Virus genome (UHGV): UHGV-0182401
Reading direction: 5' to 3' (one strand)
From: a virus
Length of the DNA stretch: 40,878 nucleotides
Numbering within the stretch: position 1 is the stretch's first letter; each line of letters starts with the position of its first letter. Made by a program: the position numbers and the translations under genes. Shown piece by piece: positions 1 through 40,878 of this stretch. The notes under the pieces were generated by a model. The model was not told where the DNA came from. It made no database searches and saw nothing but the letters and a program-made list of their open reading frames with translations.

Positions 1-10
1 ATGGTCCTCA

Positions 11-30
11 TTCCCGCCGAAATGCGGGAA
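11..30 (+). promoter_or_regulatory. nutR boxB-like hairpin (TTCCCGC-CGAAAT-GCGGGAA)
   Basis: 7-bp stem hairpin about 13 nt downstream of boxA at the window end; same core hairpin recurs on the minus strand in nutL. Confidence 0.55.
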
Positions 31-87
31 TACAACGCGCATAAGTTGATGCGCATAACTTCTTATTTGTTAAGGAAATACTTACAT

Positions 88-366
88 ATGGAACTTACAA
101 GTACTCGCAAGAAAGCGAATGCAATTACAAGCAACATCCTAAATCGAATTGCTGTACGTGGTCAGCGAAAGGTTGCCGACGCGTTAGGGATTAATGAATC
201 GCAAATTTCGCGATGGAAAGACAGCTTCATCCCCAAAATGGGAATGCTTCTTGCTGTTCTTGAATGGGGTGTTGAAGACGAGGAGTTGGCGGAACTGGCT
301 AAGAAAGTAGCCAGAATGCTGACAAAAGAAAAAGCCCCGAAGAACGGCGAATTCTTCGAGGCCTGA
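88..366 (+). CDS. cII: CII-like transcriptional activator
   Basis: Translation from the ATG at 88 aligns along its length with remembered lambda CII (shared QISRWK and [10 protein letters not shown] motifs); AAGGAAA ribosome-binding site upstream. The 1..366 track ORF is just the open frame. Confidence 0.8.
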
Positions 367-400
367 TGTAGAAAGACTGGATCAATCCACAGGAGTCATT

Positions 401-547
401 ATGACAAAACAACTCAGTCCTTACCAGGACAAAATTCACAAACACATACTACGTGATCGCTTCCTGTCCAGCTTCAAGCAGCCTGGTCGATTCCGGGCTG
501 AGTTGGAAAAAGTGAAGCTGATGCAGAAGGAGAAAGGTCATGAGTAA
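401..547 (+). CDS. Hypothetical small protein (48 aa)
   Basis: ATG preceded by AGGAG; stop overlaps the start of the O-like gene. Below the ORF-track size cutoff. Confidence 0.3.
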
Positions 548-1439
548 CATATCTAATCTAGCCGAAGCCAGAGAGGCCAGAAGGCTACAACAACCGCATC
601 AAAGCAGCGGTAAGGGGTATGCCTTGCTGCACCGTAAAATTATGGATGTGCCGTTTTACAAGGACGCAGAAGCTGCGCATCTGTGGGTTCACTTAATCCT
701 CAAAGCAAAGCATACGCCTGAGTATGTAATGACTGACGCAGGAGAAATTCTGGTAGGCAGAGGGAAGCTACTTGGCGGTAGAAACTCTCTGGCGTTTGAA
801 ACAGGACTCAAACCAGATCGCGTTCAGTACCTGCTTAGAAAGTTCAAAAAACTCGGCATGATTGACTGGGTTTCACACGGTAAATTCTCAGTTTTCTCGG
901 TAGAGAAATATGACGATTATCAGTCAAATTTTGTACCAGCAGATTACCAGCAAATTACCACCTCAAAGCCAGCAATACCAATGCCTGCAAGCAATACTGT
1001 ACCAGCAGATTACCAGCAAATTACCACAGATAAAGAATATAATAATATTATCTCTAATACTGACGTATTAGAGAGTACCGCAGCAGACAAAAAGTCTGAC
1101 AAGAAAAAACCTTCCGTTAGCTGTCAGGATGTTGTCGATGCTTACCACGAAATCCTTCCTGAAGCGCCAAGAATCCGCGCACTGAATGACAAGCGTAAAA
1201 ACCAGATCCGAACGTTCTGGCGCAAAGCCGGAGTGATAACCCGCCAGCTTGACGGGCATGGGTTCACGATGCAGGACTGGAGAAATTATTTGAGCTACGT
1301 AGGCGAAAATTGCCGATGGATGTTCGAAGAGCGTCCAAACCATCAACGCGGAACTGTCTGGCACAAAAAGGGATTTGATTTCCTGCTTAACGATAATACC
1401 TACCTGAAAGTTCGTGAGGGTGAACACGATGACCGATAA
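540..1439 (+). CDS. Replication initiation protein (lambda O / P22 gp18 functional analogue)
   Basis: Sits between cII and the DnaB-like helicase; carries internal direct repeats plus an AT-rich tract like ori-lambda inside O. Family assignment is by position and architecture, not strong sequence recall. Confidence 0.7.
932..1075 (+). repeat. Candidate replication origin: two perfect 30-bp direct repeats (932-961, 998-1027) with ACCAGCA/ATTACCA sub-repeats, then an AT-rich tract (1028-1075)
   Basis: Repeats read directly from the sequence (TGTACCAGCAGATTACCAGCAAATTACCAC twice); each encodes [10 protein letters not shown] in the initiator. Confidence 0.6.
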
Positions 1440-2865
1440 TTTTTATGCGCCGCCCCATAGCATCGAGGCAGAGCAGGCGGTGATTGGTGGATTGCTTCTG
1501 GATGATGACAGCAGTGAGCGCGTCCAGAAAGTTCTGGCGATGCTGAAGCCTGATTCATTTTACAGCCGACCACACAAAATCATTTTCGAAGAAATAACCA
1601 GAATGCACCGTGAGCAAAAGCCAGTAGATGGCCTGACGCTTTTCGATGAACTGGAGCGTAAATCGTTAACTGTGTCTGTTGGCGGTTTTGCTTATATAGC
1701 TGAGATCGCAAAGAACACGCCAAGCGCCGCAAACATCGTTGCCTATGCAATGCAGGTTCGCGAAACCGCAATGGAACGCTACGCCATCAACCGCATGACT
1801 GAAGCGACGGAATTGCTCTATTCCCGCAACGGAATGACTGCGACGCAGAAGTACGAAGCTATTCAGTCGATTTTCACGCAACTGACAGACCATGCAAAAA
1901 CCGGATCGCGTCGCGGCCTTCGCTCATTTGGTGAGGTTATGGAAGACTGGGTTAGCGACCTTGAGAAGCGATTTGACCCGTCAGGCGAACAACGAGGAAT
2001 GAGCACAGGGATCCCATCGCTGGACAGGATGCTGTCACCGAAAGGTCTGGTGAAAGGCTCTCTGTTTGTCATTGGCGCTCGCCCTAAGATGGGGAAAACG
2101 ACGCTATACAGCCAGATGGCAATCAACTGCGCAGTGCATGAGAAAAAGCCCGCTCTGATGTTCAGCCTTGAAATGCCCGGTGACCAGATACTGGAAAAAC
2201 TGGTAGGACAGAAGTCAGGTGTTAACCCGAATATTTTTTACCTTCCGGCGACAAATGACGCTGATGACGGCTATCAGGGTGATTACGATGGTGACTTCAA
2301 CAGGGCGATCGAAACAGCCAATCGCTTGAGTGAAATCGACCTGCTTTACATCGACGACACGCCGGGATTATCTCTGGCTCAAATAGTCAGCGAAAGTCGT
2401 CGAATCAAGCGAGAAAAAGGATGTGTTGGCATGATTCTGGTCGATTACCTGACACTAATGACTGCTGAGAAGGCCGATCGCAACGACCTTGCTTACGGCA
2501 TGATCACCAAAGGACTGAAGAACCTTGCCAAAGAGCTTGATTGCGTTGTTGTGCTTCTGACGCAGCTTAACCGCGCACTGGAAAGCAGAACCAATAAACG
2601 CCCATTACCAAGTGACTCACGAGATACAGGGCAGATTGAACAGGATTGCGATTATTGGGTGGGGATCCATCGTGAAGGTGCTTTTGATGACAGTGTTCCA
2701 CCTGGTGAAACCGAACTAATCCTTCGTCTCAATCGTCATGGCAATACCGGCACGGTGTATTGCATTCAGGCAAATGGCTCTATTTATGACACAGACCAAC
2801 AGTCCGCTGAAATGCGCCGCCGTGAACGCGAGGAACCGCAATCCAAGAAGAAAGGAGGATTCTGA
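1429..2865 (+). CDS. DnaB-family replicative helicase
   Basis: N-terminal SIEAEQAVIGGLL motif and Walker-type GARPKMGKT typical of DnaB; start chosen at the ATG after GAGGGTG. Confidence 0.85.
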   Translation: MTDNFYAPPHSIEAEQAVIGGLLLDDDSSERVQKVLAMLKPDSFYSRPHKIIFEEITRMHREQKPVDGLTLFDELERKSLTVSVGGFAYIAEIAKNTPSAANIVAYAMQVRETAMERYAINRMTEATELLYSRNGMTATQKYEAIQSIFTQLTDHAKTGSRRGLRSFGEVMEDWVSDLEKRFDPSGEQRGMSTGIPSLDRMLSPKGLVKGSLFVIGARPKMGKTTLYSQMAINCAVHEKKPALMFSLEMPGDQILEKLVGQKSGVNPNIFYLPATNDADDGYQGDYDGDFNRAIETANRLSEIDLLYIDDTPGLSLAQIVSESRRIKREKGCVGMILVDYLTLMTAEKADRNDLAYGMITKGLKNLAKELDCVVVLLTQLNRALESRTNKRPLPSDSRDTGQIEQDCDYWVGIHREGAFDDSVPPGETELILRLNRHGNTGTVYCIQANGSIYDTDQQSAEMRRREREEPQSKKKGGF

Positions 2866-2895
2866 TGACCATCTACATCACTGAGCTAATAACAG

Positions 2896-2922
2896 GGGCT
2901 ATTTACACAGTAGCCCTTTTTT
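2896..2922 (+). terminator. Intrinsic terminator after the helicase gene (tR2-like position)
   Basis: 6-bp stem GGGCTA/TAGCCC with 9-nt loop followed by TTTTTTATT. Confidence 0.5.
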
Positions 2923-2949
2923 ATTGGATTAAGAACGAGGGGGATCCTG

Positions 2950-3162
2950 ATGGACACCGTTAACGGAATGTGTTCAGACGCACCGCGTGCCAAAAAATGT
3001 AAATGCGGAAAATCACCGACAATATTCGACATGGAGAACGGGTGCCAAATCTACTGCGCTAACCACGCTGCTGTGGCGGCCGCGAATTATCGCAGTGCGG
3101 TAACGGAGTGGAATAACCTGAAATCTGTTAGAGAGGGAAGTCATGAAAAAACTAACCTTTGA
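2950..3162 (+). CDS. Small Cys-rich hypothetical protein (70 aa)
   Basis: ORF with GAGGGGGA ribosome-binding site; five cysteines including CKC and CxxxC spacing suggest metal binding. Confidence 0.5.
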   Translation: MDTVNGMCSDAPRAKKCKCGKSPTIFDMENGCQIYCANHAAVAAANYRSAVTEWNNLKSVREGSHEKTNL

Positions 3163-3583
3163 AATTCGATCTCCGGCGCATCAGCAAAACGCTATTCACG
3201 CAGTACAGCAAATCCTTCCAGATCCAACCAAGCCAATCGTAGTGATCATTCAGGAGCGCAACCGTAGCTTAGACCAAAACAGGAAGCTATGGGCCTGCTT
3301 AGGTGACGTCTCTCGTCAGGTTGAATGGCATGGTCGCTGGCTGGATGCAGAAAGCTGGAAGTGTGTGTTTACCGCAGCATTAAAGCAGCAGGACGTTGTT
3401 CCTAACCTTGCCGGGAATGGCTTTGTGGTAATAGGCCAGTCAACCAGCAGGATGCGTGTAAGCGAATTTGCGGAGCTATTAGAGCTTATACAGGCATTCG
3501 GTACAGAGCGTGGCGTTAAGTGGTCAGACGAAGCGCGACTGGCTCTCGAATGGAAAGCGCGATGGGGAGACAGGGCGGCATGA
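3143..3583 (+). CDS. ninB: NinB recombination protein
   Basis: 146 aa, near-identical along its length to remembered lambda NinB ([27 protein letters not shown]...). Confidence 0.9.
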
Positions 3584-3762
3584 GACGACAGCGACGAAGT
3601 ATCACCGACATAATCTGCGAAAACTGCAAATACCTTCCAACGAAACGCTCCAGAAATAAACGCAAGCCAATCCCGAAAGAATCTGACGTAAAAACCTTCA
3701 ACTACACGGCTCACCTGTGGGATATCCGGTGGCTTAGAGAACGTGCGAGGAAAACAAGGTGA
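3580..3762 (+). CDS. ninD: Nin-region small basic protein (NinD/NinE family, 60 aa)
   Basis: [19 protein letters not shown]...; ATGA overlap with ninB stop. Which of ninD/ninE this is rests on gene order and is uncertain. Confidence 0.65.
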
Positions 3763-3929
3763 TTGACCAAAATCGAAGTTACGAACAAGGAAGTGTCGAG
3801 CGAGCTTTAACGTGCGCTAATTGCGGTCAAAAGCTGCATTTTCTGGAAGTTCACGTGTGCTCCGATTGCTGCGCAGAACTGATGAGCGATCCGAATAGCT
3901 CAATGTGCGAGGAAGAAGACGATGAATGA
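3759..3929 (+). CDS. ninE: Nin-region small Cys-rich protein (NinE/NinD family, 56 aa, GTG start)
   Basis: GTG start overlapping the previous stop; CANCGQ...VCSDCC motif; no in-frame ATG upstream. Confidence 0.6.
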
Positions 3930-4647
3930 GTTAATAAATGGCAATGCCATCAAAATGACAAGCATTGAAATCGCTGAGTTGGTAGAAAGCCGCCATAGCA
4001 ATGTAAAAGTATCCATAGATAGATTGGTGAAACGTGGCGTTATCAAGCCTCCTGCATTGCAGCACACTAACATAATCAATTATTTAGGTGTTATTACCGG
4101 GAAGCGTGATTTCTACGTCTTCGAGGGCGAACAAGGTAAGCGAGACAGTATTGTCGTTGTTGCCCAGTTGTCGCCAGAGTTCACCGCTCGCCTTGTTGAC
4201 CGCTGGCGAGAGCTTGAAGAAGCTGCGGTTAATATCCCCAAAACGCTACCAGAAGCGTTGCGCCTTGCTGCTGATCTTGCTGAGCAGAAAATGCAACTGG
4301 AAAACCAGCTCGCAATTGCCGCACCTAAAGTTGAGTTTGCCGATCGCGTTGGCGAGGCCAGCGGAATTTTGATTGGAAACTTTGCAAAGGTTGTCGGTAT
4401 TGGTCAAAACAAACTGTTTGCATGGATGCGCGATCACAAAATCCTTATTGCTTCAGGTTCCCGGCGAAATGTGCCAATGCAGGAATATATGGATCGCGGC
4501 TATTTCACAGTGAAAGAAACAGCGGTCAACACAAATCACGGAATACAGATATCGTTCACCACAAAAATCACCGGGCGTGGTCAACAGTGGCTGACCAGAA
4601 AGCTGCTCGATAACGGAATGCTGAAAGTAACAGGGGAGGCTGCTTAA
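3922..4647 (+). CDS. Roi/antirepressor-like DNA-binding protein (KilA-C/ANT-type C-terminal domain)
   Basis: 241 aa; position in nin region and domain pattern resemble HK022 Roi and phage antirepressors. Confidence 0.6.
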   Translation: MNELINGNAIKMTSIEIAELVESRHSNVKVSIDRLVKRGVIKPPALQHTNIINYLGVITGKRDFYVFEGEQGKRDSIVVVAQLSPEFTARLVDRWRELEEAAVNIPKTLPEALRLAADLAEQKMQLENQLAIAAPKVEFADRVGEASGILIGNFAKVVGIGQNKLFAWMRDHKILIASGSRRNVPMQEYMDRGYFTVKETAVNTNHGIQISFTTKITGRGQQWLTRKLLDNGMLKVTGEAA

Positions 4648-4937
4648 TGGCTAACCTACGCAAAGAAGCGCGCGGCAGAGAATGCCAGGTACGTATTTAC
4701 GGCGTATGCAATGGCAACCCTGAAACTACAGTTCTGGCACATTACCGGATGGCTGGAATTTGCGGAACGGGAATGAAGCCTGACGACCTGATCGGCGCAT
4801 GGGCTTGTAGTGACTGCCACGCGGAGATCGACCGACGCACCCATAATCTCGACAACAAAGACGCCAGACTTTACCACCTCGAAGGCGTAATCAGGACGCA
4901 GGCGATACTGCTGAAGGAGGGGAAGATTAAGTCATGA
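4647..4937 (+). CDS. ybcO: YbcO-like protein (DUF1364)
   Basis: 96 aa, MANLRKEARGRECQVRIYGVCNGNPET... closely matches remembered DLP12 YbcO; same position upstream of rusA. Confidence 0.75.
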   Translation: MANLRKEARGRECQVRIYGVCNGNPETTVLAHYRMAGICGTGMKPDDLIGAWACSDCHAEIDRRTHNLDNKDARLYHLEGVIRTQAILLKEGKIKS

Positions 4938-5296
4938 ACGAATATCAGTTTGTGCTTCCTTACCCGCCGTCGGTGAACACCTACTGGCGAAGACGGGGAA
5001 GCCAATACTACATCAGCGATAAAGGCCAGAAATACCGAAAAGACGTTCAGCAAATCATCCGCCAACTCAAGTTAGACATTTTCACCAAATCACGACTCCG
5101 CATCAAAGTCATCGCAGACGTTCCAGACTCCCGCCGCCGCGACCTCGACAACATCCTGAAAAGTTTACTCGACTCCCTTATCCACGCCGGATTTGCGGAA
5201 GACGACGAGCAATTCGATGACATTCGCGTAATTCGTGGTGTGAAAGTACCAGGTGGAAGACTTGGAATAAAAATCACCGAACTGGAGAACGCATGA
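4934..5296 (+). CDS. rusA: RusA Holliday-junction resolvase
   Basis: 120 aa with the conserved RRRDLDN motif and overall match to RusA. Confidence 0.9.
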   Translation: MNEYQFVLPYPPSVNTYWRRRGSQYYISDKGQKYRKDVQQIIRQLKLDIFTKSRLRIKVIADVPDSRRRDLDNILKSLLDSLIHAGFAEDDEQFDDIRVIRGVKVPGGRLGIKITELENA

Positions 5297-5478
5297 ACGC
5301 CACAATTCAAACGATACCAGAGCTTCTTATCCAGACACGAGGCAATCAGACCGAAGTGGCGAGGATGCTTTCCTGTGCAAGAGGAACAGTGCTCAAGTAC
5401 AACCGAGACAGCAAAGGTGAGCGTCACGTAATAGTTAACGGCGTCCTGATGGTAACGCCAGGCAAAAAGGGAAGATGA
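5293..5478 (+). CDS. ninH: NinH-like small DNA-binding protein
   Basis: GNQTEVARMLSCARGTVLKY matches the remembered lambda NinH core. Confidence 0.7.
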   Translation: MNATIQTIPELLIQTRGNQTEVARMLSCARGTVLKYNRDSKGERHVIVNGVLMVTPGKKGR

Positions 5479-5996
5479 TGAGCATAAGAGAACTAAACCT
5501 CACCAAAGAACAGCACGATTGGCTGAATTGCTGGCTTGAACTGTGGGGCGCATGGGTTTATTCAGGTCGTCTGGAAAAGCGCATGAGCAGCGTAATAGCG
5601 AAGTTCATGGAGAGCGTAGAGCCGGGAAGAGTTATGACAAGGCCAATGTGCAATGATGATGATGGAATGTTGATTTCTCAGGTCGTCGATTCCGTCATGT
5701 ACATTGACAAGAAAGCCTTTGGCATCCTCCTCAGCTACTACGCTCATGGTTCATCTAAGCGAGCAATTGCATCCTACTATCACGCGACTGCAAAGCCACG
5801 CAAGATGTGTGGACGTGGTGGCGAGGGATGGAGAAAACCTTCACTGGCAACCTGTAGAAACGAAATTGACGACATCCTGAAAGCGTCGTTATTTGTTTTG
5901 TACCAGCCAATGCAAAATGCTTTCAAAATGCGTAAACGTGTTGAGAAAGTTAAGCATGTTGCTGTTAAAAGCCTTGACATGCAATTATCCATTTAG
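5475..5996 (+). CDS. Late-gene antiterminator Q (Q21/QuuD-like family)
   Basis: WGAW and CNDDDGMLI motifs resemble remembered QuuD; last gene before the candidate late promoter. Confidence 0.7.
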   Translation: MMSIRELNLTKEQHDWLNCWLELWGAWVYSGRLEKRMSSVIAKFMESVEPGRVMTRPMCNDDDGMLISQVVDSVMYIDKKAFGILLSYYAHGSSKRAIASYYHATAKPRKMCGRGGEGWRKPSLATCRNEIDDILKASLFVLYQPMQNAFKMRKRVEKVKHVAVKSLDMQLSI

Positions 5997-6013
5997 CCAT
6001 AATTAGAAGGTAA

Positions 6014-34105: not shown

Positions 34106-34116
34106 TTCTTGTCTCC

Positions 34117-34481: not shown

Positions 34482-35048
34482 TCAAAGTGGAGGCTCTGGT
34501 AGCGGCATCCAGTGAGTTACGTCATCCAAGATATTTCCTGATAAATACGTGAAAGCTCTATATTTTTTGTAATCAATTGGATTTACAACCCAGTTCCAAT
34601 ATGCGGCCACGATTTCACCTTGACTAAATGCCAGTAACATTTTGGTTTCTTCCGGCATTCGCTCACTACAGCTTATCCAACCATCCGGAGTTACCGGAGA
34701 GTTGCCCGATAGCTCGTTCAACTTGTAAGTTTGGCTTACGAGTTCGGCTTCCAGTTCTGCTATGCGCTTTTTTGCTGCTTCCAGCTCGCCAAGCAGCGCC
34801 AAGACGGTAGCCGGATTGGCTGCAGCGATGAATTCAGCATTGGCCTGCTGTTCCATTTGGAAATCTTCATCGAAACCGCTTTCAGGATGCGCTCCTTCAA
34901 TTCTGCAAATGGGAAGATATCCAACAACGTCACGATGAATTAGCGCATCATCACAATCAAATCGGCTCTCTCCATATTCGAGCGACCACACCCCACACGT
35001 TGCTTTCTCTGCCGCTTCACGCAGTGCCTGATAGTCAATCTTGCTCAT
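34482..35048 (-). CDS. Ead/Ea22-like protein with C-terminal DUF551-like region
   Basis: 188 aa; C-terminal WISCSERMPEE...THWMPLPEPP resembles DUF551. Confidence 0.55.
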   Translation of the reverse strand: MSKIDYQALREAAEKATCGVWSLEYGESRFDCDDALIHRDVVGYLPICRIEGAHPESGFDEDFQMEQQANAEFIAAANPATVLALLGELEAAKKRIAELEAELVSQTYKLNELSGNSPVTPDGWISCSERMPEETKMLLAFSQGEIVAAYWNWVVNPIDYKKYRAFTYLSGNILDDVTHWMPLPEPPL

Positions 35049-35049
35049 G

Positions 35050-35349
35050 TCACATCACCCTGAATCCGTTGCATTTACGTAAGAAATCGCAGATATAGCC
35101 CTTCATTTTTTCATGCCAATCTCGATCATTCCCATTGCACCACCCATCAGGTGGAGTCCAGTTTTCTATCAGAGCAGCCATTTTCTTTGCTTTCGCCGGA
35201 GTAGCTGTTGCGGTATCGCAGTAATGACGAGTGTCAACAAACTTATCCATGCCATCGATATCAAGTACGCAAAACCATGTGTGATTCGGAATTCCTACAG
35301 GTGGTATTTGTTGCCCACGTCGGCGTTTATCAATGAGATATACACTCAC
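35050..35349 (-). CDS. Hypothetical protein (99 aa)
   Basis: Translationally coupled to its neighbours on both sides. Confidence 0.45.
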   Translation of the reverse strand: MSVYLIDKRRRGQQIPPVGIPNHTWFCVLDIDGMDKFVDTRHYCDTATATPAKAKKMAALIENWTPPDGWCNGNDRDWHEKMKGYICDFLRKCNGFRVM

Positions 35350-35795
35350 TGGTTACCTCCTTTGCGAAGCTCTGCGGCGAACTCGTTAAGTGATATGTAG
35401 CAATCTCCAAATGTTAACGAACCGCTCGACTGCATATGCTCCATAGCCATCTCCACGCCCTGCGCCCGTACTTCAGCCAGGAAAGCATCGGTGGCTGGGG
35501 TTTCAGTAACATCATCTTCCCATTCGCTAAACTCCTCACGACAAAAGTCATTAAATTCCTTCTCAGATTGCTTAAGCGAGGTATTTTCAGCAGCCATCTT
35601 CGCGCATTTAGCCTCAAGGTTATCAATCGTGATTCCAGCAGAACGACACTCCCGCAACGCCGTTTCTAGTTTTGATTCAAGTTCACCGAACTTACGCACC
35701 AGATATTCAGCGTTTGTTTCGTTAACCTTTAAATCTCGGGGGATGCATTTACCTTTCAGAAAACCATCCATCTCAATTAGTGACATTTGTTTCAT
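35346..35795 (-). CDS. Hypothetical protein (about 149 aa)
   Basis: Start chosen at the ATG after GGAG; the track start is a GTG 18 nt upstream. Confidence 0.45.
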   Translation of the reverse strand: MKQMSLIEMDGFLKGKCIPRDLKVNETNAEYLVRKFGELESKLETALRECRSAGITIDNLEAKCAKMAAENTSLKQSEKEFNDFCREEFSEWEDDVTETPATDAFLAEVRAQGVEMAMEHMQSSGSLTFGDCYISLNEFAAELRKGGNQ

Positions 35796-35951
35796 TTCTT
35801 CCCACTCCGCCACATTGCATTCAGATATTTGTTGTCATTAACAGAACCGAAATATTTCTCTTAAGCAATTCCTCTCTCGATGGCATTGGCTTTACGCGTT
35901 GGCGAATAATCATTTCTGCCGGAAGAATGCCGGGATTGTATGCAAGTCCTC

Positions 35952-36242
35952 TCATGATTTACTCTCCACGAACTGGTCAACGGCCATGCTAAGTGACACA
36001 CCTAAAGTATCGATATGCTGCTGAATATCCTGTAGCGTCCGCGCTTGAGATAACAGAATTTCACGGTTGCATAACTCTTTAACCAGATGCTCAAACTTGC
36101 TGTAATAACCGATACGGCTTAGTGTTTCTTTCCCTGCATTCTCACCTTCTTTGATAATTCCTCTTTCGCTAAGAATCAGGTCGTGTTTGGTTCCGGTAAT
36201 AACGTATTTGCCGAGGTCGATGTTTAGCTTCATTGTTTTCAT
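35952..36242 (-). CDS. Hypothetical protein (97 aa)
   Basis: Start at ATG ([10 protein letters not shown]) after GAGGA; the track ORF extends upstream from a TTG into the preceding gene. Confidence 0.45.
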
Positions 36243-36252
36243 TGTTAATTCC

Positions 36253-36549
36253 TCAGTCATTACTGATAGCGCCATAGCGTGAGCGGTAATTACGCAGGCG
36301 CGGGTCGATATATTCAGGGAAGTGGGTATATGTGGCTTTGCGGAATGGTCGGATTGATGTCTGGTAAATTCGCTCTCGTTCTTCTTTCTCTGCAAGCCAT
36401 ATACAGTGGCGAAATTCCTTTTCTTCTTTCGTTTCCTGCGGTAGCGACATTATCCGGTCGTAGTTTTTCCTGAATTTATCCAGCACCTCCGATACGGAAT
36501 TGCCGGAACAGCGGCGCGCGTCGTCCGCACCATACAGAGGCGCTGGCAT
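36253..36549 (-). CDS. Hypothetical protein (98 aa)
   Basis: ORF with ATG start; first gene after ssb in the leftward operon. Confidence 0.45.
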   Translation of the reverse strand: MPAPLYGADDARRCSGNSVSEVLDKFRKNYDRIMSLPQETKEEKEFRHCIWLAEKEERERIYQTSIRPFRKATYTHFPEYIDPRLRNYRSRYGAISND

Positions 36550-36562
36550 GATTTTCTCCTGA

Positions 36563-37078
36563 TTAAATTGCGTGAATAGCGTGACGAGGGAAGGGGAGGG
36601 TTACTGGCGCAAAAGGTATATCGTCGTCAAACTCCATAGGTGGTTCGCTGTGATTTACCTGCTTCTGAGGCTGCTGTTTTTGTTGCTGACCGTTATTTCG
36701 CTGAGGTGAAGACTGTTCATTGCTTCCTTGCTTGCCACCAAGCATTTGCATGGTTCCACCAACGCCCACGATAACTTCGGTAGTGAACCGATCCTGTCCG
36801 CTTTGATCCTGCCATTTTCTTGTCCGCAATTTTCCTTCAAGATAAACCTCAGAGCCTTTTCGCAGATATTCGCTGGCAATTTCTGCCAGTTTCCCGCTCA
36901 TTACCACACGGTGCCACTCCGTCTGCTCCTTTTGCTCTCCAGTTTGCTTATCACGCCATTGTTCTGACGTAGCAACTATAAGGTTTGCAAATGCCGTTCC
37001 TGATGGTGAATATCTGATTTCTGGATCATGCCCAAGGCGACCAATAATGATCACCTTATTTACGCCTCTACTTCCCAT
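36563..37078 (-). CDS. ssb: Single-stranded DNA-binding protein, with a 15-aa extension beyond the canonical DDDIPF tail
   Basis: OB-fold N-terminus typical of SSB and acidic [11 protein letters not shown] near the C-terminus, followed in frame by [15 protein letters not shown] before the stop. Confidence 0.85.
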
Positions 37079-37786
37079 TTATGCCGCCTGTTTTAGTTCG
37101 TTAACTCTGATGTTCATTACCTGAACGCATTTAGCCTGCGCATCCTCATTGCCAGCCATTAATTGCCAGTCATGCTGATAACGTTCTATGAGTTTTTTCT
37201 TGTCAGTTTCTGTTGATGCATAATCGCTGAAGTCTTTCAGGATTTGTTCGCAGTCAACCGATGGAGATTTCTGGTTGGTATTTTCTGGTGATGGTTTGTT
37301 ATCTGATGCTGGGATTGCCCAGCCCGGCAGCGATGGAGGGAGCCAGTAAAATCCTGTTCCATCCTTCAGTTTTGCCCTGTGCCACCCCTGTTTTTTATCG
37401 GGAGATGTTTGTGCGAAACCTTCCTCAAGGTTATACAGATACCGACCGATTCCCCACTGAACGGCAGCGCGCTTCATTGCACCGGAACGACCACCTTTGA
37501 CGGCTTCTACCTGCGTGTTTTCAGCAGCATCCCATTTGGTTACCCATTCGGAATCAATCTTTATTGATATGCCGCATTCAACGCCGCCGTTGTTGGGAAT
37601 ATCGCGGTATTCATTGCGCCATCCTGCTTTGCCACAAACATCGTCAAGGCGTTTCATGATTGCCCGGTTCGTAACATAAGCCAGCACCATAGCCCACACC
37701 TTGCCATCGCGTGTTTTACCGCTTTGCTGTATTCGCCATTCGATATCTTCAGGGCAGAATGGCTCATCGAATTTGTTCAAATCCAT
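37079..37786 (-). CDS. Single-strand annealing recombinase (Rad52/Sak-like)
   Basis: GAMKRAAVQWGIGRYLY motif typical of Rad52-like annealing proteins; paired with ssb. Confidence 0.65.
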   Translation of the reverse strand: MDLNKFDEPFCPEDIEWRIQQSGKTRDGKVWAMVLAYVTNRAIMKRLDDVCGKAGWRNEYRDIPNNGGVECGISIKIDSEWVTKWDAAENTQVEAVKGGRSGAMKRAAVQWGIGRYLYNLEEGFAQTSPDKKQGWHRAKLKDGTGFYWLPPSLPGWAIPASDNKPSPENTNQKSPSVDCEQILKDFSDYASTETDKKKLIERYQHDWQLMAGNEDAQAKCVQVMNIRVNELKQAA

Positions 37787-37873
37787 AATTCACCTCAGAA
37801 TGGACATGGCCCAAGGAAATAACGCTGGTTTAATACTTCGACTCGGGACAAATTAAGGCATACCCGCATTCCT

Positions 37874-38044
37874 TCGCGGTCACCATTATGGCGATACCAG
37901 AGAGCTTTCTGCGTGTACATGCGTCTCTGTAACTTGCTCTCCTTCACTGTGGTTGCAAGTGACATGAATATCTCCTTCGTTACCGATTAATTCTTTCATC
38001 TGACGAATGAATTCTTCGTCTGACCAGTTATCTGTAAAACTCAT
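37874..38044 (-). CDS. Small hypothetical protein (56 aa), coupled to the kil-like gene
   Basis: ATGA overlap with the kil-like stop. An alternative 58-aa ORF in another frame with an AAGGAG site overlaps it, so the frame choice is uncertain. Confidence 0.3.
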
Positions 38045-38193
38045 TTCCTGCGATACCACGGAATGTTGATCGCTGATTTCATCGCTTTATTTGCTTCAAG
38101 CCACATTTTGGAATCACCAATAAATCTGGCTATTACTGCTTTGTTCTGTGCAGCACGAAGCATCTGGTGATTGATGGCTATTTCATTGCGCAT
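38041..38193 (-). CDS. kil: Kil-like small protein (50 aa)
   Basis: GGAGG ribosome-binding site; FIGDSKMW resembles my (uncertain) recollection of lambda Kil; position between cIII-like gene and the recombination genes matches lambda order. Confidence 0.45.
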   Translation of the reverse strand: MRNEIAINHQMLRAAQNKAVIARFIGDSKMWLEANKAMKSAINIPWYRRK

Positions 38194-38312
38194 AACGCCT
38201 CCAGTTGTTTCTTTGCTGCTCTGATTAATTGTTTAACTCGGCGTGATAATTCAGATTCGTGCGGGTAGAAAGCGGACATGACGCCGCTACCCGCGAGCTG
38301 AAAGTGCATCAT
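38178..38312 (-). CDS. cIII: CIII-like small protein (44 aa)
   Basis: AAGGAG site; ESELSRRVKQLIRAAKKQL resembles the lambda CIII central helix. Below the ORF-track cutoff. Confidence 0.5.
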   Translation of the reverse strand: MMHFQLAGSGVMSAFYPHESELSRRVKQLIRAAKKQLEALCAMK

Positions 38313-38395
38313 GGGTAACTCCTTATATTTGATTGCATAACGAAAACGCCTCGAGTGAAGCGTTATTGGTATGCGGTAAAGCCGCGCTCAGGCGG

Positions 38396-38644
38396 CTACT
38401 CTATTTCTTCTTCGAATGATTTTATTAGTCGGTCAATAACATCATCCGTTTCAATATCATTTCCGTCTGATTGCTTTAATACATCTATTGATTCTGCAGC
38501 GGTAAATTCCATCGCTGTGAGAAACTCGACAATTGCACACTCAACGACATATCGTTCTTCATCTGTACGACATGAGATAAAAGAGCATTTAATTGCTGTT
38601 ATTACTTTTTGTTTAAGCTCTGCAGGGTAATCAGTTTTTATCAT
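38396..38644 (-). CDS. Small acidic hypothetical protein (82 aa)
   Basis: ORF with GGAG site, preceded by a terminator hairpin. Confidence 0.45.
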   Translation of the reverse strand: MIKTDYPAELKQKVITAIKCSFISCRTDEERYVVECAIVEFLTAMEFTAAESIDVLKQSDGNDIETDDVIDRLIKSFEEEIE

Positions 38645-38657
38645 CGTTTACTCCGTC

Positions 38658-38686
38658 AAAAAAATTGCCCTCACATTAGAGGGCAA
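38658..38686 (-). terminator. Intrinsic terminator within the leftward early operon
   Basis: TTGCCCTC-ACATTA-GAGGGCAA hairpin followed by TTTTTTT on the minus strand, directly upstream of a gene start. Confidence 0.5.
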
Positions 38687-39050
38687 AGAAGATTTCCAAT
38701 AATCAGAACAAGTCGGCTCCTGTTTAGTTACGAGCGACATTGCTCCGTGTATTCACTCGTTGGAATGAATACACAGTGCTGTGTTTATTCTGTTATTTAT
38801 GCCAAAAATAAAGGCCACTATCAGGCAGCTTTGTTGTTCTATTAACCAAGTTCTCTGGCAATCATTGCCGTCGTTCGTATTGCCCACACCATTGATTCTT
38901 ATCAATAGTCGTAGTCATACGGATAGTCCTGGTATTGTTCCATCACATCCTGCGGATGCTCTTCGAACTCTTCAAATTCTTCTTCCATATCTCACCTCAA
39001 ATAAGTGGTTTGCTGCCAAAACAATGAACCATCCGGAAATTCCAGATAGT

Positions 39051-39278
39051 TCATAATTCACTCTTCAATACTTCCAACTTACTAATCGCCGATAGATATC
39101 CGCGCTGATAGGGCATCATCATTCCTTCGAGCTTGCCACTTCTTAACTCCTCCCTGAGCAATTGTATTGCTTGATCAATAACCTCTGCCTTAGCGTCCTT
39201 TATGGCTTGCTTGCGGGGCTTTGCTTTCTGCTTTGGCAGATTTCTCAAGCATGATGGAATGTATGTCTGATTCATCAC
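39051..39278 (-). CDS. Hypothetical early protein (75 aa)
   Basis: Immediately downstream of the N-like gene. Confidence 0.45.
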   Translation of the reverse strand: MMNQTYIPSCLRNLPKQKAKPRKQAIKDAKAEVIDQAIQLLREELRSGKLEGMMMPYQRGYLSAISKLEVLKSEL

Positions 39279-39551
39279 TTACCTGGCTGTCAGTTGTTTT
39301 GATTTCCGGTAGCCTGCCGAGTAAATGGCTACGTTTGGCAGGCAAATACTTCCACTGCATTCTTCTGCCTTCTTGCAGCGAAGGCTTCCTAGTGATGCTG
39401 CTTTATCTGCTCTGACGCAACCAGAGAGCTTTAGCGCAATTTTTCGTGACAATCGCTGTTCTTGCATTGCCTGTTCACGTTGAGCCTGTCTGCGTGCTCT
39501 GCGGCGATTTCTGGCGTTATCGTCAGCCAGATATGTAATGACTACTGTCAT
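39279..39551 (-). CDS. N: N-like transcription antiterminator (P22 gp24-like)
   Basis: Arginine-rich motif NARNRRRARRQAQREQ; C-terminus YSAGYRKSKQLTAR resembles remembered P22 gp24; first gene after pL and nutL. Confidence 0.75.
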   Translation of the reverse strand: MTVVITYLADDNARNRRRARRQAQREQAMQEQRLSRKIALKLSGCVRADKAASLGSLRCKKAEECSGSICLPNVAIYSAGYRKSKQLTAR

Positions 39552-39657
39552 GTTGACCTCCGATGATTGACTTTGGCGGTGACGCGCCGGGTGCTTATCT
39601 TCCGGTTGCCGTCGTGCAGCTGCACTTCACGTCACCCCAAAGCCAACTACTCTTTGG

Positions 39658-39700
39658 TTCCCGCATTTCGGCGGGACAATCCCATCAATGTTAAAGAGCC
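39658..39700 (-). promoter_or_regulatory. nutL: boxA (GCTCTTTAACA) plus boxB hairpin
   Basis: On the minus strand, boxA at 39689-39699 followed 11 nt later by the same TCCCGCCGAAATGCGGGA hairpin seen in nutR. Confidence 0.6.
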
Positions 39701-39745
39701 TGCCAATCTGTTCCGTTTGGCTACCAGCTTCCTGCTGATGGCTAG

Positions 39746-39774
39746 ATAATCACAAATTGTGGTCGTACTGTCAA
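39746..39774 (-). promoter_or_regulatory. Candidate pL promoter (TTGACA-N17-GATTAT) with overlapping operator-like palindrome
   Basis: Consensus -35 and reasonable -10 on the minus strand; palindrome CACAAATTGTG at 39751-39761 in the spacer. Confidence 0.45.
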
Positions 39775-39846
39775 CACGAAATGTGATTGTTTTTATCACA
39801 ACCCGTGTTTACATTGATTTTAAAGGTAATTTAATTTTCTTTGGGC

Positions 39847-39871
39847 AACAAAAAACCCGCCGAAGCGGGTT
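39847..39871 (-). terminator. Intrinsic terminator downstream of cI
   Basis: AACCCGC-CGAA-GCGGGTT hairpin followed by a T-run on the minus strand, about 25 nt after the cI stop. Confidence 0.55.
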
Positions 39872-39895
39872 TGATGTTTTTAAGTGGCGGGTATA

Positions 39896-40537
39896 TCAGG
39901 AGAATTTCATCATCATCTGCACTGCTACGCCGATTATCTTGCAGTTGCCGTCGATTGGGATCAACGGATAGGCAGGGTTAAGCCCTTTCAGGTATTTGTT
40001 ACCGCCATCAATGATTAGCTTCTTGAACGTGGCTTCATTAGCATCTGTCAGCTTCGCAACTACCAGGCTTCCATTAACGGCTTCCTTTCCAGTGTCGAAC
40101 AGAACCAGCATACCCTCAGGAACGCTAAGGCCGGTAGGAGCTGTCATTGAGTCGCCCTGAACCCTGAGCCAGAAGGCGTCACCGACAACGTGACAATCTG
40201 ATTCATACCACTCATCCACTGCCTGAGGGTTGTACGGCTCTACGGCCTCACTCCATGCACCTGCGCTAACCCAGCTAATCAACGGAAACTTTTCCCCTGG
40301 CTTGTATTGTCCCTGATAGTTGTCGCCAAAAAGCAGTTCTGCCGGAGCGACACCCAAAGCTTTAGCTATTACCTCTGCGTCATCAACACTAACGCTTCTG
40401 GTTCCTGATTCATAGTTGCCGATCCGAGATTGTGAAGCCCAGCCGCAAAGCTCCGCAAGAGCCTTCTGTGTAAGCCCTTTATCTTCCCGTAATCGCTTGA
40501 TACGCGCGGCGATAGTTTCTGTTCTGTTCATGCGCAT
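39896..40537 (-). CDS. cI: CI-type repressor (helix-turn-helix plus LexA-like S24 autocleavage domain)
   Basis: 213 aa; C-terminal domain PLISWVSAG...VQGDSMTAP...CKIIGV closely resembles remembered P22 C2; divergent from cro. Confidence 0.9.
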   Translation of the reverse strand: MRMNRTETIAARIKRLREDKGLTQKALAELCGWASQSRIGNYESGTRSVSVDDAEVIAKALGVAPAELLFGDNYQGQYKPGEKFPLISWVSAGAWSEAVEPYNPQAVDEWYESDCHVVGDAFWLRVQGDSMTAPTGLSVPEGMLVLFDTGKEAVNGSLVVAKLTDANEATFKKLIIDGGNKYLKGLNPAYPLIPIDGNCKIIGVAVQMMMKFS

Positions 40538-40579
40538 TTTATATCACATTCCGTGGTTTAAGGCTTTACACGATTTGTG

Positions 40580-40608
40580 TTGACTATCAATCACAATGTG
40601 TGTTTAAT
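40580..40608 (+). promoter_or_regulatory. Candidate pR promoter (TTGACT-N17-TTTAAT) with operator-like palindromes
   Basis: In the cI-cro intergenic region; ACACGATTTGTGT and TCACAATGTGTG nearby. Confidence 0.45.
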
Positions 40609-40641
40609 AAAGACTGAGTGAACTAGCTCTTAAGGAAACCT

Positions 40642-40857
40642 ATGAACAACATTGCCAACGAACGGAAAAAGCTTGGCATCACTCAATCTGCGTTAGCAGG
40701 CGCGTGTGGCTGGAACCAGTCCCGCTTAGCTAACTACGAGTCAGGTATCCGGACTCCAGATTTAGAGTCGTGCCGTAGCCTGGTAAAGGCGCTGAATAAA
40801 TTGGGGAGCAAGACAACGCTAGATGGCTTGTTCCCGCCGCGTAAGAACGCCGCATAA
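40642..40857 (+). CDS. cro: Cro-like helix-turn-helix regulator
   Basis: 71 aa XRE-type helix-turn-helix (LGITQSALAGACGWNQSRLANYESG), divergent from cI. Confidence 0.7.
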   Translation: MNNIANERKKLGITQSALAGACGWNQSRLANYESGIRTPDLESCRSLVKALNKLGSKTTLDGLFPPRKNAA

Positions 40858-40863
40858 GCAAAT

Positions 40864-40875
40864 TGCTCTTTAACA
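40864..40875 (+). promoter_or_regulatory. nutR boxA (TGCTCTTTAACA)
   Basis: Matches the rrn-type boxA consensus as remembered; its boxB partner is at positions 11-30. Confidence 0.55.
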
Positions 40876-40878
40876 GTC

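Follow-up and report, generated by a model that had tools for sequence, protein, structure and literature searches.

Lambda-like genes in a phage with a contractile tail, the latter seen by electron microscopy, were described in 2017 for SEN34 (PMC5261728), and the SEN34 record is collinear with the genome presented here. UHGV-0182401, the whole stretch of 40,878 nucleotides that was analysed (the window), is a complete, closed and circularly permuted genome of a temperate coliphage (40.9 kb): ECP1 aligned unbroken across 36239-40878 and then 1-410, at 99.3-99.7%. With a probability of about 0.9, it is a complete SEN34-like phage, temperate and lambdoid, that was opened arbitrarily between cro and cII. 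Similarity to SEN34 DNA extends over about 33% of the window, thus the two phages do not belong to the same genus according to the usual 70% rule. The combination of lambdoid control, replication and lysis genes with a myovirus module has already been described and is common in E. coli prophages. The module was found in 402 of 5,426 complete E. coli genomes and adjoins lambdoid early genes in the best 20 of these 402 matching genomes; in the I3 prophage the layout was followed in full.

The first-pass annotation had proposed a mosaic of lambdoid modules and a foreign structural block, and this two-part composition was confirmed, since the DNA similarity of the relatives splits at 12151-31030. 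Similarity to DNA from HK022, HK620, mEpX2, ECP1, HK75, lambda and P22 lies wholly outside this interval and similarity to SEN34, Omnitron and vB_EcoM-606R2 almost wholly inside it. From TerL to the N-terminus of the tail fibre (12151-31030), no DNA similarity to the lambdoid relatives, lambda, P22, SfV, P2 or Mu was found. The GC content is split as well, with approximately 0.41-0.50 in the early regions versus 0.51-0.57 in the structural block. The lambdoid parts (32.1-40.9 kb and 1-12.1 kb) contain int/xis, recombination genes, N, cI, cro, cII, O, a DnaB-type P, the nin genes, Q, S/R/Rz/Rz1, rha and an HNH gene.

The early, nin and lysis genes had been called lambda- or P22-like, which agrees with the protein identities to lambda (ninB, S and R 99%), P22 (Rz 90%, abc2 92%, cII 79% to C1) and HK022 (O 98%, P 99%). 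The cro gene (40642-40857, plus strand; 71 aa, HTH; Pfam HTH_3, 4.5e-12) is located inside a block 99.7% identical to ECP1 that runs past the window end into position 1, and the DNA of the cI repressor gene (39896-40537, minus strand; HTH_3 and an S24 autocleavage domain, Peptidase_S24, 2.9e-25) is identical to ECP1. The antiterminator N (39279-39551, minus strand; N_peptide, 2.3e-15) shares 64% of its amino acids with mEpX2 N and 36% with P22 gp24; cII (88-366, plus strand; Phage_CII, 2.4e-42, residues 30-120) is 98% identical to the mEpX2 protein. A cII box (TTGCN6TTGC), pRE-like, is present at 121-134 on the minus strand. The cII reading frame is open from position 1, with M30 as the likely start. 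The gene for the replication initiator O (540-1439, plus strand) contains ori iterons (927-1027, with repeats at 927-961, 938-972 and 993-1027) where the HK620 annotation has its rep_origin. P (1429-2865, plus strand) is a DnaB-type replicative helicase (DnaB_C, 3.1e-60; DnaB, 1.5e-31) of the P22 gp12 type (31% amino acid identity) and not of the lambda P type.

The nin region (3143-5478, plus strand) comprises ninB, ninE, ninF, roi (KilAC antirepressor), a ybcO-like nuclease gene, rusA and ninH (Pfam YbcO and ANT), with 94-97% DNA identity to HK022, mEpX2 and HK620. It is followed by the antiterminator gene Q (5475-5996, plus strand; Phage_antitermQ, 1.4e-25), which has 99.3% DNA identity to HK75, is nearest to HK75/Sf6 and is 21-type according to the Sf6 annotation. 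The annotated HK75 pR' and tR' map to 5974-6003 and 6013-6054 on the plus strand (promoter scan 11/12). Taken together, cI/cro immunity, cII with cIII, N, and Q with pR' and tR' constitute a lambda-type control circuit.

In HK75, S directly follows the late leader, whereas in UHGV-0182401 a cargo insertion (6352-8826, plus strand; PHROG and Pfam matches) is located between them. On the plus strand it encodes a sialyltransferase-like/MptE-like protein (6593-7144; PHROG/Pfam), a phrog_6804 protein with no assigned function (7138-8079; PHROG) and a SAM methyltransferase (7985-8599; PHROG/Pfam). The insertion has 99.75% identity with the I3 prophage of E. coli; megablast against 50,697 phage records gave no match. 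The lysis genes on the plus strand are S, a holin with the dual start MKM (8864-9187; Phage_holin_3_1), the endolysin gene R (9171-9647), Rz (9644-10081; Phage_lysis) and, embedded in Rz, Rz1 (9843-10028; lipobox VVSAC). The interval between lysis genes and terS is a variable slot, occupied here by a Rha-family regulator (10244-10798, plus strand; Phage_pRha, 1.2e-23, and ORF11CD3) and in HK620 by hkbK. An HNH endonuclease gene (11151-11648, plus strand; HNH_3, 1.6e-09) lies immediately 5' of terS, and the lambdoid DNA similarity ends near it, at 11159.

At the other end of the structural block, the attP core (32226-32275) contains a match of 46-50 nucleotides to tRNA-Thr genes, with 98-100% identity to annotated tRNA-Thr genes of E. 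coli genomes; the mEpX2 annotation places a thrW-like site at the equivalent position. The integrase (32286-33449, minus strand; Phage_integrase, 1.1e-42) is 100% identical to that of Omnitron and 65% to those of P22 and SfV at the amino acid level, and is a tRNA-Thr-targeting enzyme. Next to it lies a gene for an excisionase-like HTH protein (33326-33673, minus strand; HTH_17). Accessory and recombination genes of the early-left region (33761-38644, minus strand), among them Ea22/DUF551, DUF7739 and DUF5405, were assigned with Pfam, protein identities to P22, HK022 and mEpX2, and the ECP1 annotation. They include, all on the minus strand, abc2 (36253-36549), SSB (36563-37078), a Rad52/Erf-type annealase (37079-37786), kil (38041-38193), cIII (38178-38312) and an anti-restriction-like ORF (38396-38644).

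The structural block starts within the C-terminus of the small terminase (11650-12204; Terminase_2, 6.5e-41), where similarity to SEN34 and Omnitron DNA sets in at 12151-12166. The head genes, all on the plus strand, continue with the large terminase (12207-13829; phrog_2) and the portal (13829-15295; Phage_portal_3, 6.6e-106), a pair with 95% amino acid identity to SEN34. Then follow a minor head protein of the Mu-F/SPP1 gp7 type (15312-15920), a DUF2213 protease/scaffold (15935-17155; PHROG head maturation protease), a cement/decoration protein (17160-17663; XM1_gp53_minor_capsid/Phage_cement), the major capsid protein (17675-18616; Major_capside; Pam3 capsid 8HDT, 1.3e-18) and head-tail connector genes (18658-20717) including DUF4054, a Neck1-type protein, an adaptor and a tail terminator (Phage_tail_terminator_9; phrog_222, phrog_939). 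The head had been named Mu-F-type; the minor head protein does carry the Phage_Mu_F domain (3.9e-18), and Mu gp30 matches the same family, but nothing else in the head is Mu-like.

The predicted sheath, tube and frameshifted chaperone were all recovered by Pfam or PDB matches on the plus strand. The sheath (20721-21881; DUF3383, 8.4e-103) matches XM1 gp6 (7KH1, 4.5e-35) and the Pam3 sheath (1.2e-28), and the tube (21892-22332; KPP10_Orf10, 5.9e-60) the Pam3 tube (3e-10). The tail assembly chaperone (22336-22761; Phage_TAC_15, 4.4e-33) contains the slippery run GGGAAATTTTTTG at 22704-22716, and its -1 frame, with a DUF6889 match (1.2e-11), is open to 22949 (22336-22949 with the extension), overlapping the tape-measure start at 22939. 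SEN34 has the slippery run and the 79-aa -1 ORF as well, despite a chaperone that is only 54% identical, and the frameshift is also kept in the I3 prophage. The chaperone is made in two forms via this conserved programmed -1 frameshift.

Further downstream on the plus strand, the tape measure protein (22939-24954) ends in an SLT lytic transglycosylase domain (4.2e-25). The inner baseplate (24954-27304; phrog_196 and phrog_3443) consists of the tube initiator (24954-25580; Dit_like; Pam3 gp17, 5.8e-12), the plug (25577-25882; Pam3_gp18), the hub (25885-26949; a weak E217_GP41 match; Pam3 gp19, 1.3e-08) and a conserved protein with no assigned function (26951-27304). The outer baseplate (27841-30811; phrog_120; PDB matches E217 gp43, Pam3 gp20, XM1 gp16/gp17 and Pam3 gp22/gp23) comprises the spike with apex motif (27841-28581; PF18352 and Apex), the sheath initiator/gp25-like protein (28581-28934), wedge J (28935-30134; Baseplate_J) and the DUF2612 wedge (30095-30811). 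Between them lies a moron region (27304-27825) with a DUF4236 gene in reverse orientation (27328-27618, minus strand; 1.8e-20), its own terminator (27322-27304, terminator scan) and a low GC content (0.451); it is identical in the I3 prophage but missing in SEN34 and Omnitron. The tail fibre (30793-31692; Gly_rich_2) is conserved only in its N-terminal ~93 aa and is followed by a fibre assembly chaperone (31677-32087; Caudo_TAP). The right junction is near 31030: SEN34, Omnitron and I3 lose their DNA similarity at 30957-31032.

As judged from its protein families, the head and contractile-tail block is of the SEN34/Pam3/XM1 kind and not of the P2 or Mu kind. The Pfam and PDB chain matches place the head and tail in the lineage of the minimal myophages Pam3, XM1 and E217, with a DUF3383 sheath, KPP10_Orf10 tube, gp17-like tube initiator, gp18-like plug, gp19-like hub, spike and gp25/J/DUF2612 wedge. 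The contractile morphology is predicted from homology with SEN34 and with structures already solved. The structural proteins, 23 in number, are all collinear with SEN34 (Salmonella), Omnitron (Citrobacter), vB_EcoM-606R2 and E. coli prophages, and none of the 23 is common to lambda, P22, HK022, mEpX2, SfV, P2 or Mu in the gene-sharing comparison. Among the 46 other proteins, 25 are in common with mEpX2, 20 with HK022, 16 with P22 and 11 with lambda.

The first-pass annotation had instead combined the lambdoid backbone with a head of Mu type and a tail of P2 lineage, which is very unlikely. The window does contain the Phage_Mu_F domain, Baseplate_J and the GpV apex motif, its spike marginally matches P2 gpV (3QR8, E 0.0065), and two stretches of its gene order, sheath-tube-frameshifted chaperone-tape measure and spike-W-J-I-fibre-chaperone, are each reminiscent of a P2 operon. 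However, P2 and Mu share 0 bases of DNA similarity and no structural protein (0/23) with the window, Pfam found none of the P2 tail families Phage_sheath_1, Phage_tube, TAC_7, GpU, GPD, Phage_base_V, GPW_gp25 and Tail_P2_I, and portal, protease/scaffold and capsid protein have no Mu match. Apart from the fibre-assembly cassette, tblastn with P2 gave no match to the tail proteins, and Baseplate_J is the only family that the ten P2 tail proteins have in common with the window. Gene order does not support a P2-like tail either. The tail genes form one run, from the sheath and the tube via the chaperone, the tape measure, the tube initiator, the plug and the hub to the spike, the wedge and the fibre. 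Mu has this order, and the numbering of the named Pam3 components, with gp13 for the sheath followed by gp17 to gp24, implies it as well, whereas in P2 the V-W-J-I-H-G baseplate/fibre operon is located upstream of, and apart from, FI-FII-E/E'-T-U-D; the two P2 operons have the opposite relative order, with fun(Z) between them. Lambdoid myoviruses of the other class known, the SfV type, have an HK97-like head and a Mu-like tail, and membership in that class is extremely unlikely: SfV is likewise lambdoid with a contractile tail and matching tail gene order, and its R (89%), int (65%), rusA, xis and cI-like proteins have counterparts in the window, yet tblastn gave 0/23 structural matches, DNA similarity within 12151-31030 is absent and Pfam detected none of the Mu tail families Tail_tube, DNA_circ_N, GpP, Gp45, GP46 and Gp48.

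At 12.1 kb and 31-32 kb, both the relatives and the GC content change sharply, which could also suggest that the assembly had fused two co-induced prophages into a chimera. No one record spans the window, none in the phage and E. coli collections covers at least 80% of either half, and the exact mosaic is without an independent twin. Such an artefact is nevertheless extremely improbable since both junctions are seen in independent complete genomes: the I3 prophage aligns unbroken over 10046-24005 (Rz, rha, HNH, terS, TerL), the E. coli 730V1 alignment connects the structural block, via the fibre-assembly gene, with the integrase, in the circular Omnitron record the attP-int segment adjoins a matching tail block, and ECP1 closes the window seamlessly. 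It is also highly improbable that lambdoid backbone and myovirus module were joined only once and recently, in this phage alone. Early segments 97-99.7% identical to siphovirus and podovirus taxa do indicate very recent exchange, but early, Q and lysis genes of lambdoid type precede the block, in unchanged order, in SEN34, Omnitron and many E. coli prophages, and the relatives come from three host genera, with structural proteins diverged down to 51% identity. The shared layout and this divergence show that the join is older than UHGV-0182401.

The deep join, which would define SEN34, Omnitron and many E. coli prophages, is probably old because it is spread over host genera; the block follows the pR'/lysis region directly on the same strand and might be transcribed within a single Q-dependent late operon. 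The module exchange that the first-pass annotation saw in this genome holds for recent events in the early region, but the backbone/tail join is common to these phages gene for gene. At the level of gene order, the genome is largely collinear with a single recognised phage type, that of SEN34. The per-module DNA and protein comparison and gene-sharing count that the first-pass annotation had suggested support the two-part mosaic, but show that the tail lineage had been misnamed and the architecture was already known.

Recent mosaicism would be reassortment inside the lambdoid part, through recombination within the prophage pool common to enterobacteria, the breakpoints falling at gene borders. 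With DNA identities of 97-99.7%, the genome appears to record recent early-region reassortment with siphovirus (Hendrixvirinae) and podovirus (Lederbergvirus) taxa. Its lambdoid patches (94-99.7% DNA identity to HK022, HK620, mEpX2, HK75 and ECP1) are 1-2897 (HK620/HK022, 98%), 3131-5482 (HK022/mEpX2, 94-97%), 5483-6351 (HK75, 99.3%), 8827-10185 (HK022/mEpX2, 96-97%) and 36239-40878 (ECP1, 99.7%); for 12151-31030, the values are 84-94% for Omnitron, 66-86% for SEN34 and 91-95% for the E. coli I3 prophage. Breakpoints were mapped to 5482 (ninH/Q), 6351 and 8827 (cargo slot before S), 11159 (before HNH), 12151-12166 (terS C-terminus) and ~31030 (after the tail-fibre N-terminus).

The genome is a two-part mosaic, as the first-pass annotation had proposed. 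Similarity to lambdoid phages at the DNA level lies outside a structural block at 12151-31030, and similarity of the SEN34 type is found almost only inside it. The left border of this block (12151) falls into the C-terminus of terS and the right one (about 31030) just past the N-terminus of the tail fibre. Within these borders no DNA similarity was detected to the compared lambdoid phages, lambda, P22, SfV, P2 or Mu, and SEN34, Omnitron, vB_EcoM-606R2 and a prophage of E. coli I3 align almost solely there. All 23 structural proteins, from TerL to the DUF2612 wedge protein, have homologues in SEN34 (51-96% identity), Omnitron (60-100%), 606R2 and I3, and none is shared with lambda, P22, HK022, mEpX2, SfV, P2 or Mu. 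The other 46 proteins are shared with mEpX2 (25), HK022 (20), P22 (16) and lambda (11), but only five of them with SEN34, with which the early regions have little in common. The GC content is 0.41-0.50 in the early regions versus 0.51-0.57 in the structural block.

For the tail, the analysis departs from the first-pass annotation, which had called it P2-like and was misleading on this point: its protein families place the tail with Pam3, XM1 and E217 (the SEN34-like kind), not with P2. There are likenesses to P2 (Peduoviridae), in that both have a contractile tail, a Baseplate_J protein, a chaperone with a -1 frameshift ahead of the tape measure and a fibre-assembly cassette (36% identity); the endolysin is 56% identical to P2 K. 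However, blastn found 0 bases and tblastn 0 of the 23 structural proteins in common with P2, which tblastn matched only in the fibre-assembly cassette and the endolysin, besides a generic integrase and a single small early protein. The P2 tail is made of the Pfam families Phage_sheath_1/1C, Phage_tube, TAC_7, PhageMin_Tail, GpU, GPD, Phage_base_V with Phage_spike, GPW_gp25, Baseplate_J and Tail_P2_I, and the tail encoded here of DUF3383, KPP10_Orf10, TAC_15 with DUF6889, SLT, Dit_like, Pam3_gp18, a weak E217_GP41, PF18352 with Apex, Baseplate_J and DUF2612. The annotated sheath and tube are thus present, as DUF3383 and KPP10_Orf10 proteins, but the sheath and tube families of P2 were not found in the window, neither with Pfam nor by tblastn, and TAC_7, GpU, the GpD hub, Phage_base_V, GPW_gp25 and Tail_P2_I were absent among the window proteins in the Pfam search; the P2 counterparts of sheath, tube, chaperone, GpU, GpD, V, W and I therefore belong to other families. 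The sole tail family in common, Baseplate_J (PF04865, 4.7e-15), does not discriminate, because it is common to most contractile tails including that of Mu. The layout differs as well: P2 has two tail operons, with V-W-J-I-H-G upstream of and apart from FI-FII-E/E'-T-U-D, whereas the tail genes of the window form one run that begins with the sheath block.

This single run is the arrangement seen in Mu, and both Mu and the SfV-type phages share this tail gene order and have a simple baseplate of six conserved core components. Neither is a plausible source of the structural genes. Mu, just as P2, was rejected with 0 bases in blastn, 0 of 23 proteins in tblastn and differing Pfam tail families, and 0 of the 23 structural proteins were matched in an SfV-type lambdoid myovirus. 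The tblastn matches to Mu are confined to short, weak ones in J (26%) and TerL (28%) and to the fibre-assembly cassette, and the Mu tail families Tail_tube (PF10618), DNA_circ_N, GpP, Gp45, GP46 and Gp48 do not occur in the window. A Mu-F-type head had also been annotated, and of this the Mu-F domain itself stands: the gene adjoining the portal encodes a Phage_Mu_F protein (PF04233) at 3.9e-18, compared with 6.1e-32 for Mu gp30. The rest of the head does not follow Mu. It comprises a Phage_portal_3 portal, a DUF2213 protease/scaffold, a cement protein of the XM1-gp53/E217-gp24 type and a PF09950 capsid protein, none of which had a tblastn match in Mu. Apart from the Mu-F domain and Baseplate_J, all head families (by tblastn) and tail families (by Pfam) are different. 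TerL had no Pfam match. A 2.4-kb TerL-portal remnant with 93% identity is located in E. coli BL21 (NZ_CP170101.1, 751653-754013); its portal-family fragment (DUF1073 / Phage_portal_3) bears the name 'anti-CBASS protein Acb1 family protein' in that record, which conflicts with the portal assignment.

The assignment of the tail to the Pam3/XM1/E217 kind is carried by the PDB search. The sheath matched XM1 gp6 (7KH1) at 4.5e-35 and the Pam3 sheath at 1.2e-28, the tube the Pam3 tube (3e-10), the tube initiator Pam3 gp17 (5.8e-12), the hub Pam3 gp19 (1.3e-08) and the major capsid protein the Pam3 capsid (8HDT, 1.3e-18). The spike was matched by E217 gp43 and Pam3 gp20, and by P2 gpV only at 0.0065; the wedge proteins were matched by XM1 gp16/gp17, Pam3 gp22/gp23 and E217 gp44. 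The tail chains came from 7KH1, 8HDR, 7YFZ and 8EON, and the codes were assigned to XM1 and Pam3 via their papers. The gene order in the window is sheath, tube, chaperone, tape measure, tube initiator, plug, hub, spike, sheath initiator, wedge pair and fibre, so that the components run in order from the DUF3383 sheath through the two-protein wedge; for the named components this parallels the Pam3 gene numbers (sheath gp13, then gp17 to gp24). The cyanophage Pam3, the Vibrio phage XM1 and the E217/PB1-like Pseudomonas phages thus have the same families from sheath to capsid, cement proteins included, and the same tail gene order, although the relationship is distant (E 1e-8 to 1e-35). Additional features of the window are the SLT domain of its tape measure and the moron that lies within its baseplate cluster; in the descriptions consulted, none of the three is credited with a lambdoid control or lysogeny backbone. 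The sheath family reaches Burkholderia, Erwinia, Vibrio, Klebsiella and Felix-O1-like myoviruses, and no P2- or Mu-like phage is among the 40 spread-sampled records listed. In SEN34, which has a lambda-type architecture, an icosahedral head and a contractile tail were seen by electron microscopy (PMC5261728). Of the SEN34-like phages, SEN34 alone has such images; from the homology to Pam3, XM1 and SEN34, the virion encoded in the window is probably contractile-tailed too.

The frameshifted tail chaperone of the first-pass annotation is real. A slippery run, GGGAAATTTTTTG, at 22704-22716 contains three overlapping X_XXY_YYZ heptamers, and the -1 frame is open for 77-79 codons up to 22949, ending 10 nt inside the tape-measure gene. 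The chaperone itself is a TAC_15 protein and the -1 extension matches DUF6889 at 1.2e-11. In SEN34 this run is retained together with a -1 frame of 79 codons, although chaperone identity is only 54%. In the middle of the tape-measure gene (24005-24826) DNA similarity is lost both to I3 (gap 24005-24370) and to Omnitron (gap 24398-24826); the tape measure is 69-76% identical overall, and its neighbouring proteins are 96-100% identical.

Outside the structural block the annotation of lambdoid early, nin and lysis genes was confirmed by segments near-identical to accepted lambdoid phages, by protein identities and by Pfam. Patches with 94-99.7% DNA identity comprise cII, a small ORF, O and P (1-2897; 98%, HK620/HK022), ninB, ninE, ninF, roi, a ybcO-like gene, rusA and ninH (3131-5482; 94-97%, HK022/mEpX2), Q with pR' and tR' (5483-6351; 99.3%, HK75), S, R and Rz/Rz1 (8827-10185; 96-97%, HK022/mEpX2) and the left arm from abc2 through N, cI and cro (36239-40878; 99.7%, ECP1). 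Protein identity to lambda is 99% for ninB, S and R, and protein identity to P22 is 90% for Rz, 92% for abc2 and 79% for cII; cIII and kil are 98-100% and O is 98% identical to HK022. Pfam matches were obtained for cII (Phage_CII), cI (HTH and Peptidase_S24), cro (HTH_3), N (N_peptide), the Q antiterminator, the DnaB-type helicase, the holin and Rz. For the classical definition of a lambdoid phage, viable recombination with lambda, the patches of 94-99.7% DNA identity give indirect support only. The characteristic lambdoid arrangement is present, with divergent cI/cro, cII, cIII and the N antiterminator, an O-type initiator with internal iterons followed by the DnaB-type helicase P, and a nin region followed by Q with pR'/tR' and S/R/Rz/Rz1. 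The iterons (927-1027 inside O) have the position of the annotated HK620 origin, and Rz1, with the lipobox VVSAC, is encoded within Rz. The promoter pR' (5974-6003) and the terminator tR' (6013-6054) were placed by the HK75 annotation, with which a promoter scan agreed. Between P and ninB lies a stretch of 234 nt (2897-3130) with a 70-aa ORF (2950-3162), for which the compared phages gave no similar sequence and Pfam and PADLOC no match.

TTGCN6TTGC boxes occur ten times in the window, with 3.7 expected, and only the pRE-type box at 121-134 is supported by its position. Another one at 5790-5803 on the minus strand, antisense within Q, resembles the lambda paQ / P22 a23 promoter; this paQ-like guess could be coincidence, given the number of boxes expected by chance. 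The exact lambda boxA, CGCTCTTA, was not found in the window, so no nut site could be placed.

The cI and cro DNA (39896-40857) is identical to that of ECP1 (7511-8472) and lies within the 99.7%-identical block. Therefore, the window phage and ECP1, a Hendrixvirinae siphovirus, are predicted from these sequences to be homoimmune. The ECP1 record annotates an ORF of 128 aa only, though the full repressor ORF of 213 aa is intact; a truncated cI in ECP1 was rejected, since the DNA is identical and the annotation merely shorter.

The module exchange had been read as an event recorded by this genome, and this did not hold, as SEN34 has the same whole-genome plan. SEN34 (Brunovirus SEN34; 'temperate 26' lambda cluster), Omnitron and vB_EcoM-606R2/683R1 share the head order (terS, TerL, portal, MuF, DUF2213, cement protein, capsid protein, connectors), the tail order (sheath, tube, frameshifted chaperone, SLT tape measure, baseplate, fibre) and the remainder (int/xis, recombination genes, repressor, cro/cII, O/P, nin, Q, S/R/Rz), that is, a collinear head and tail set in lambda-type early, nin, Q and lysis surroundings. 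They differ from the window in terS and the integrase, in the cargo genes and in the C-terminal portion of the fibre, and the replication module of 606R2 is a different, non-lambda one. One-way DNA similarity is 33% for SEN34 and 48% for Omnitron, both under the whole-genome DNA identity of 70% or more that the ICTV convention asks of members of one genus; with about 33% of its bases identical to SEN34, the window phage falls outside Brunovirus. The same plan recurs in the I3 prophage, which lies at sbcB-dacD and matches 67% of the window at the DNA level. The head-to-tube segment was found in 402 of 5426 complete E. coli genomes, in 294 of them with at least 80% coverage, and in the best 20 of the 402 it adjoins lambdoid early genes. 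Thus, the join of backbone and virion module belongs to an established group and is a property of this group across Escherichia, Salmonella and Citrobacter.

The recent change is reassortment within the lambdoid part. Sharp breakpoints at gene borders were found at 5482 (ninH/Q) and at 6351 and 8827 (flanking the cargo before S), and further ones at 11159 (HNH start), 12151-12166 (terS C-terminus) and about 31030 (after the baseplate-binding N-terminus of the fibre). The partners are, by classification, Hendrixvirinae siphoviruses (HK022, mEpX2, HK75, ECP1) and Lederbergvirus podoviruses (HK620, Sf6), and the virion genes of these phages have zero similarity to those of the window. Identical immunity genes and near-identical early segments thus circulate among phages of three virion architectures, and the junctions of the exchange can be given at base level for a prophage type present in approximately 7% of complete E. 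coli genomes. The exact combination has no twin in the collections searched, yet its kind is already described and the mosaic mechanism is textbook lambdoid; the genome is a clean example of the classical mosaic model and not a new principle. The terS gene (11650-12204) has been swapped independently of TerL, with SEN34 and Omnitron sharing only its last 23-38 residues or so, and the similarity boundary lies inside the C-terminus, which is presumably the TerL-binding part. For the mosaic itself, the evidence carries no further than a virion block of the SEN34 type that acts as a movable cassette, with the terS C-terminus at one end and the fibre N-terminus at the other.

No twin genome covering at least 80% of either half was found in the phage collection or the 5426 E. 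coli genomes. A chimeric assembly is unlikely, as both junctions were found intact in other genomes: the I3 prophage aligns unbroken over 10046-24005, E. coli 730V1 has tail block, fibre-assembly gene and integrase in one run, and in Omnitron the same attP-int segment adjoins the same tail block. The 40,878 bases read as a single complete temperate phage genome, with genes directed rightward from 1 to about 32.1 kb and leftward at 32.3-40.5 kb, and with cro rightward at the end. ECP1 aligns to 36239-40878 and then directly to 1-410, gapless and with 99.3-99.7% identity; since it is continuous across both ends, the record is a circular permutation opened between cro and cII. The attP (32226-32275) matches 46-50 nt of tRNA-Thr genes. 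The window contains no tRNA genes according to ARAGORN and no Rfam match at the gathering threshold.

The sequence encodes a lambda-type lysis/lysogeny switch with N- and Q-type antiterminator genes. Replication by O and the DnaB-type helicase at the iterons within O, and integration at a tRNA-Thr gene, are likewise shown by the sequence. A single late transcript probably runs from pR' through the cargo, the lysis genes, rha, the HNH gene, the terminase genes and the whole virion block. By homology to Pam3, XM1 and SEN34, the particle would have a capsid with cement protein and a simple contractile tail, the baseplate of which would consist of a hub-spike core, tube initiator, plug, sheath initiator and a J/DUF2612 wedge with one fibre type. 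The SLT domain of the tape measure would cut peptidoglycan at entry.

The mapped cargo slots (Q/S, Rz/terS and hub/spike) are places to seek accessory genes in this group. The slot between late leader and S, in which Stx phages have their toxin genes and Sf6 has tRNA genes, contains a cargo (6352-8826; GC 0.53-0.55) that is 99.75% identical in the I3 prophage and had no megablast match in 50,697 phage records. Its genes encode a phrog_4603 'alpha-2,3-sialyltransferase' that is weakly MptE-like (6593-7144), a 313-aa protein of phrog_6804, a family of unknown kind (7138-8079), and a SAM methyltransferase (7985-8599). A strong terminator-like hairpin (6533-6558) is located just 5' of the first gene. 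NCBIfam and PADLOC gave no match for the cargo and accessory ORFs. That the cargo is an uncharacterised glycan- or nucleic-acid-modifying system, expressed late and serving for example conversion or counter-defence, is an unlikely though conceivable reading. Two ORFs on the minus strand, 6144-6530 and 6967-7836, overlap the late leader and the cargo genes and were rejected as spurious.

Directly upstream of terS, an HNH endonuclease gene (HNH_3 / His-Me finger; 11151-11648) is located, and its stop codon directly adjoins the start of terS; an HNH with 32% identity occupies this position in Omnitron. The enzyme could be a terminase helper like that of HK97-like phages, or else a homing endonuclease. 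The moron in the baseplate cluster, between a hub-associated gene and the spike, is a DUF4236 gene (27328-27618, minus strand) in a low-GC patch (0.45; region 27304-27825), and it brings along a GC-rich terminator of its own (27322-27304). The I3 prophage has an identical copy, Omnitron lacks the gene, and SEN34 has two other small ORFs in this slot. Between the fibre-assembly gene and the attachment site the window has 139 nt only and no O-antigen-modifying gene. Relatives carry O-antigen-modifying cargo at this place, gtrABC (44763-47482) in I3 and an O-acetyltransferase gene (21143-22234) in SEN34.
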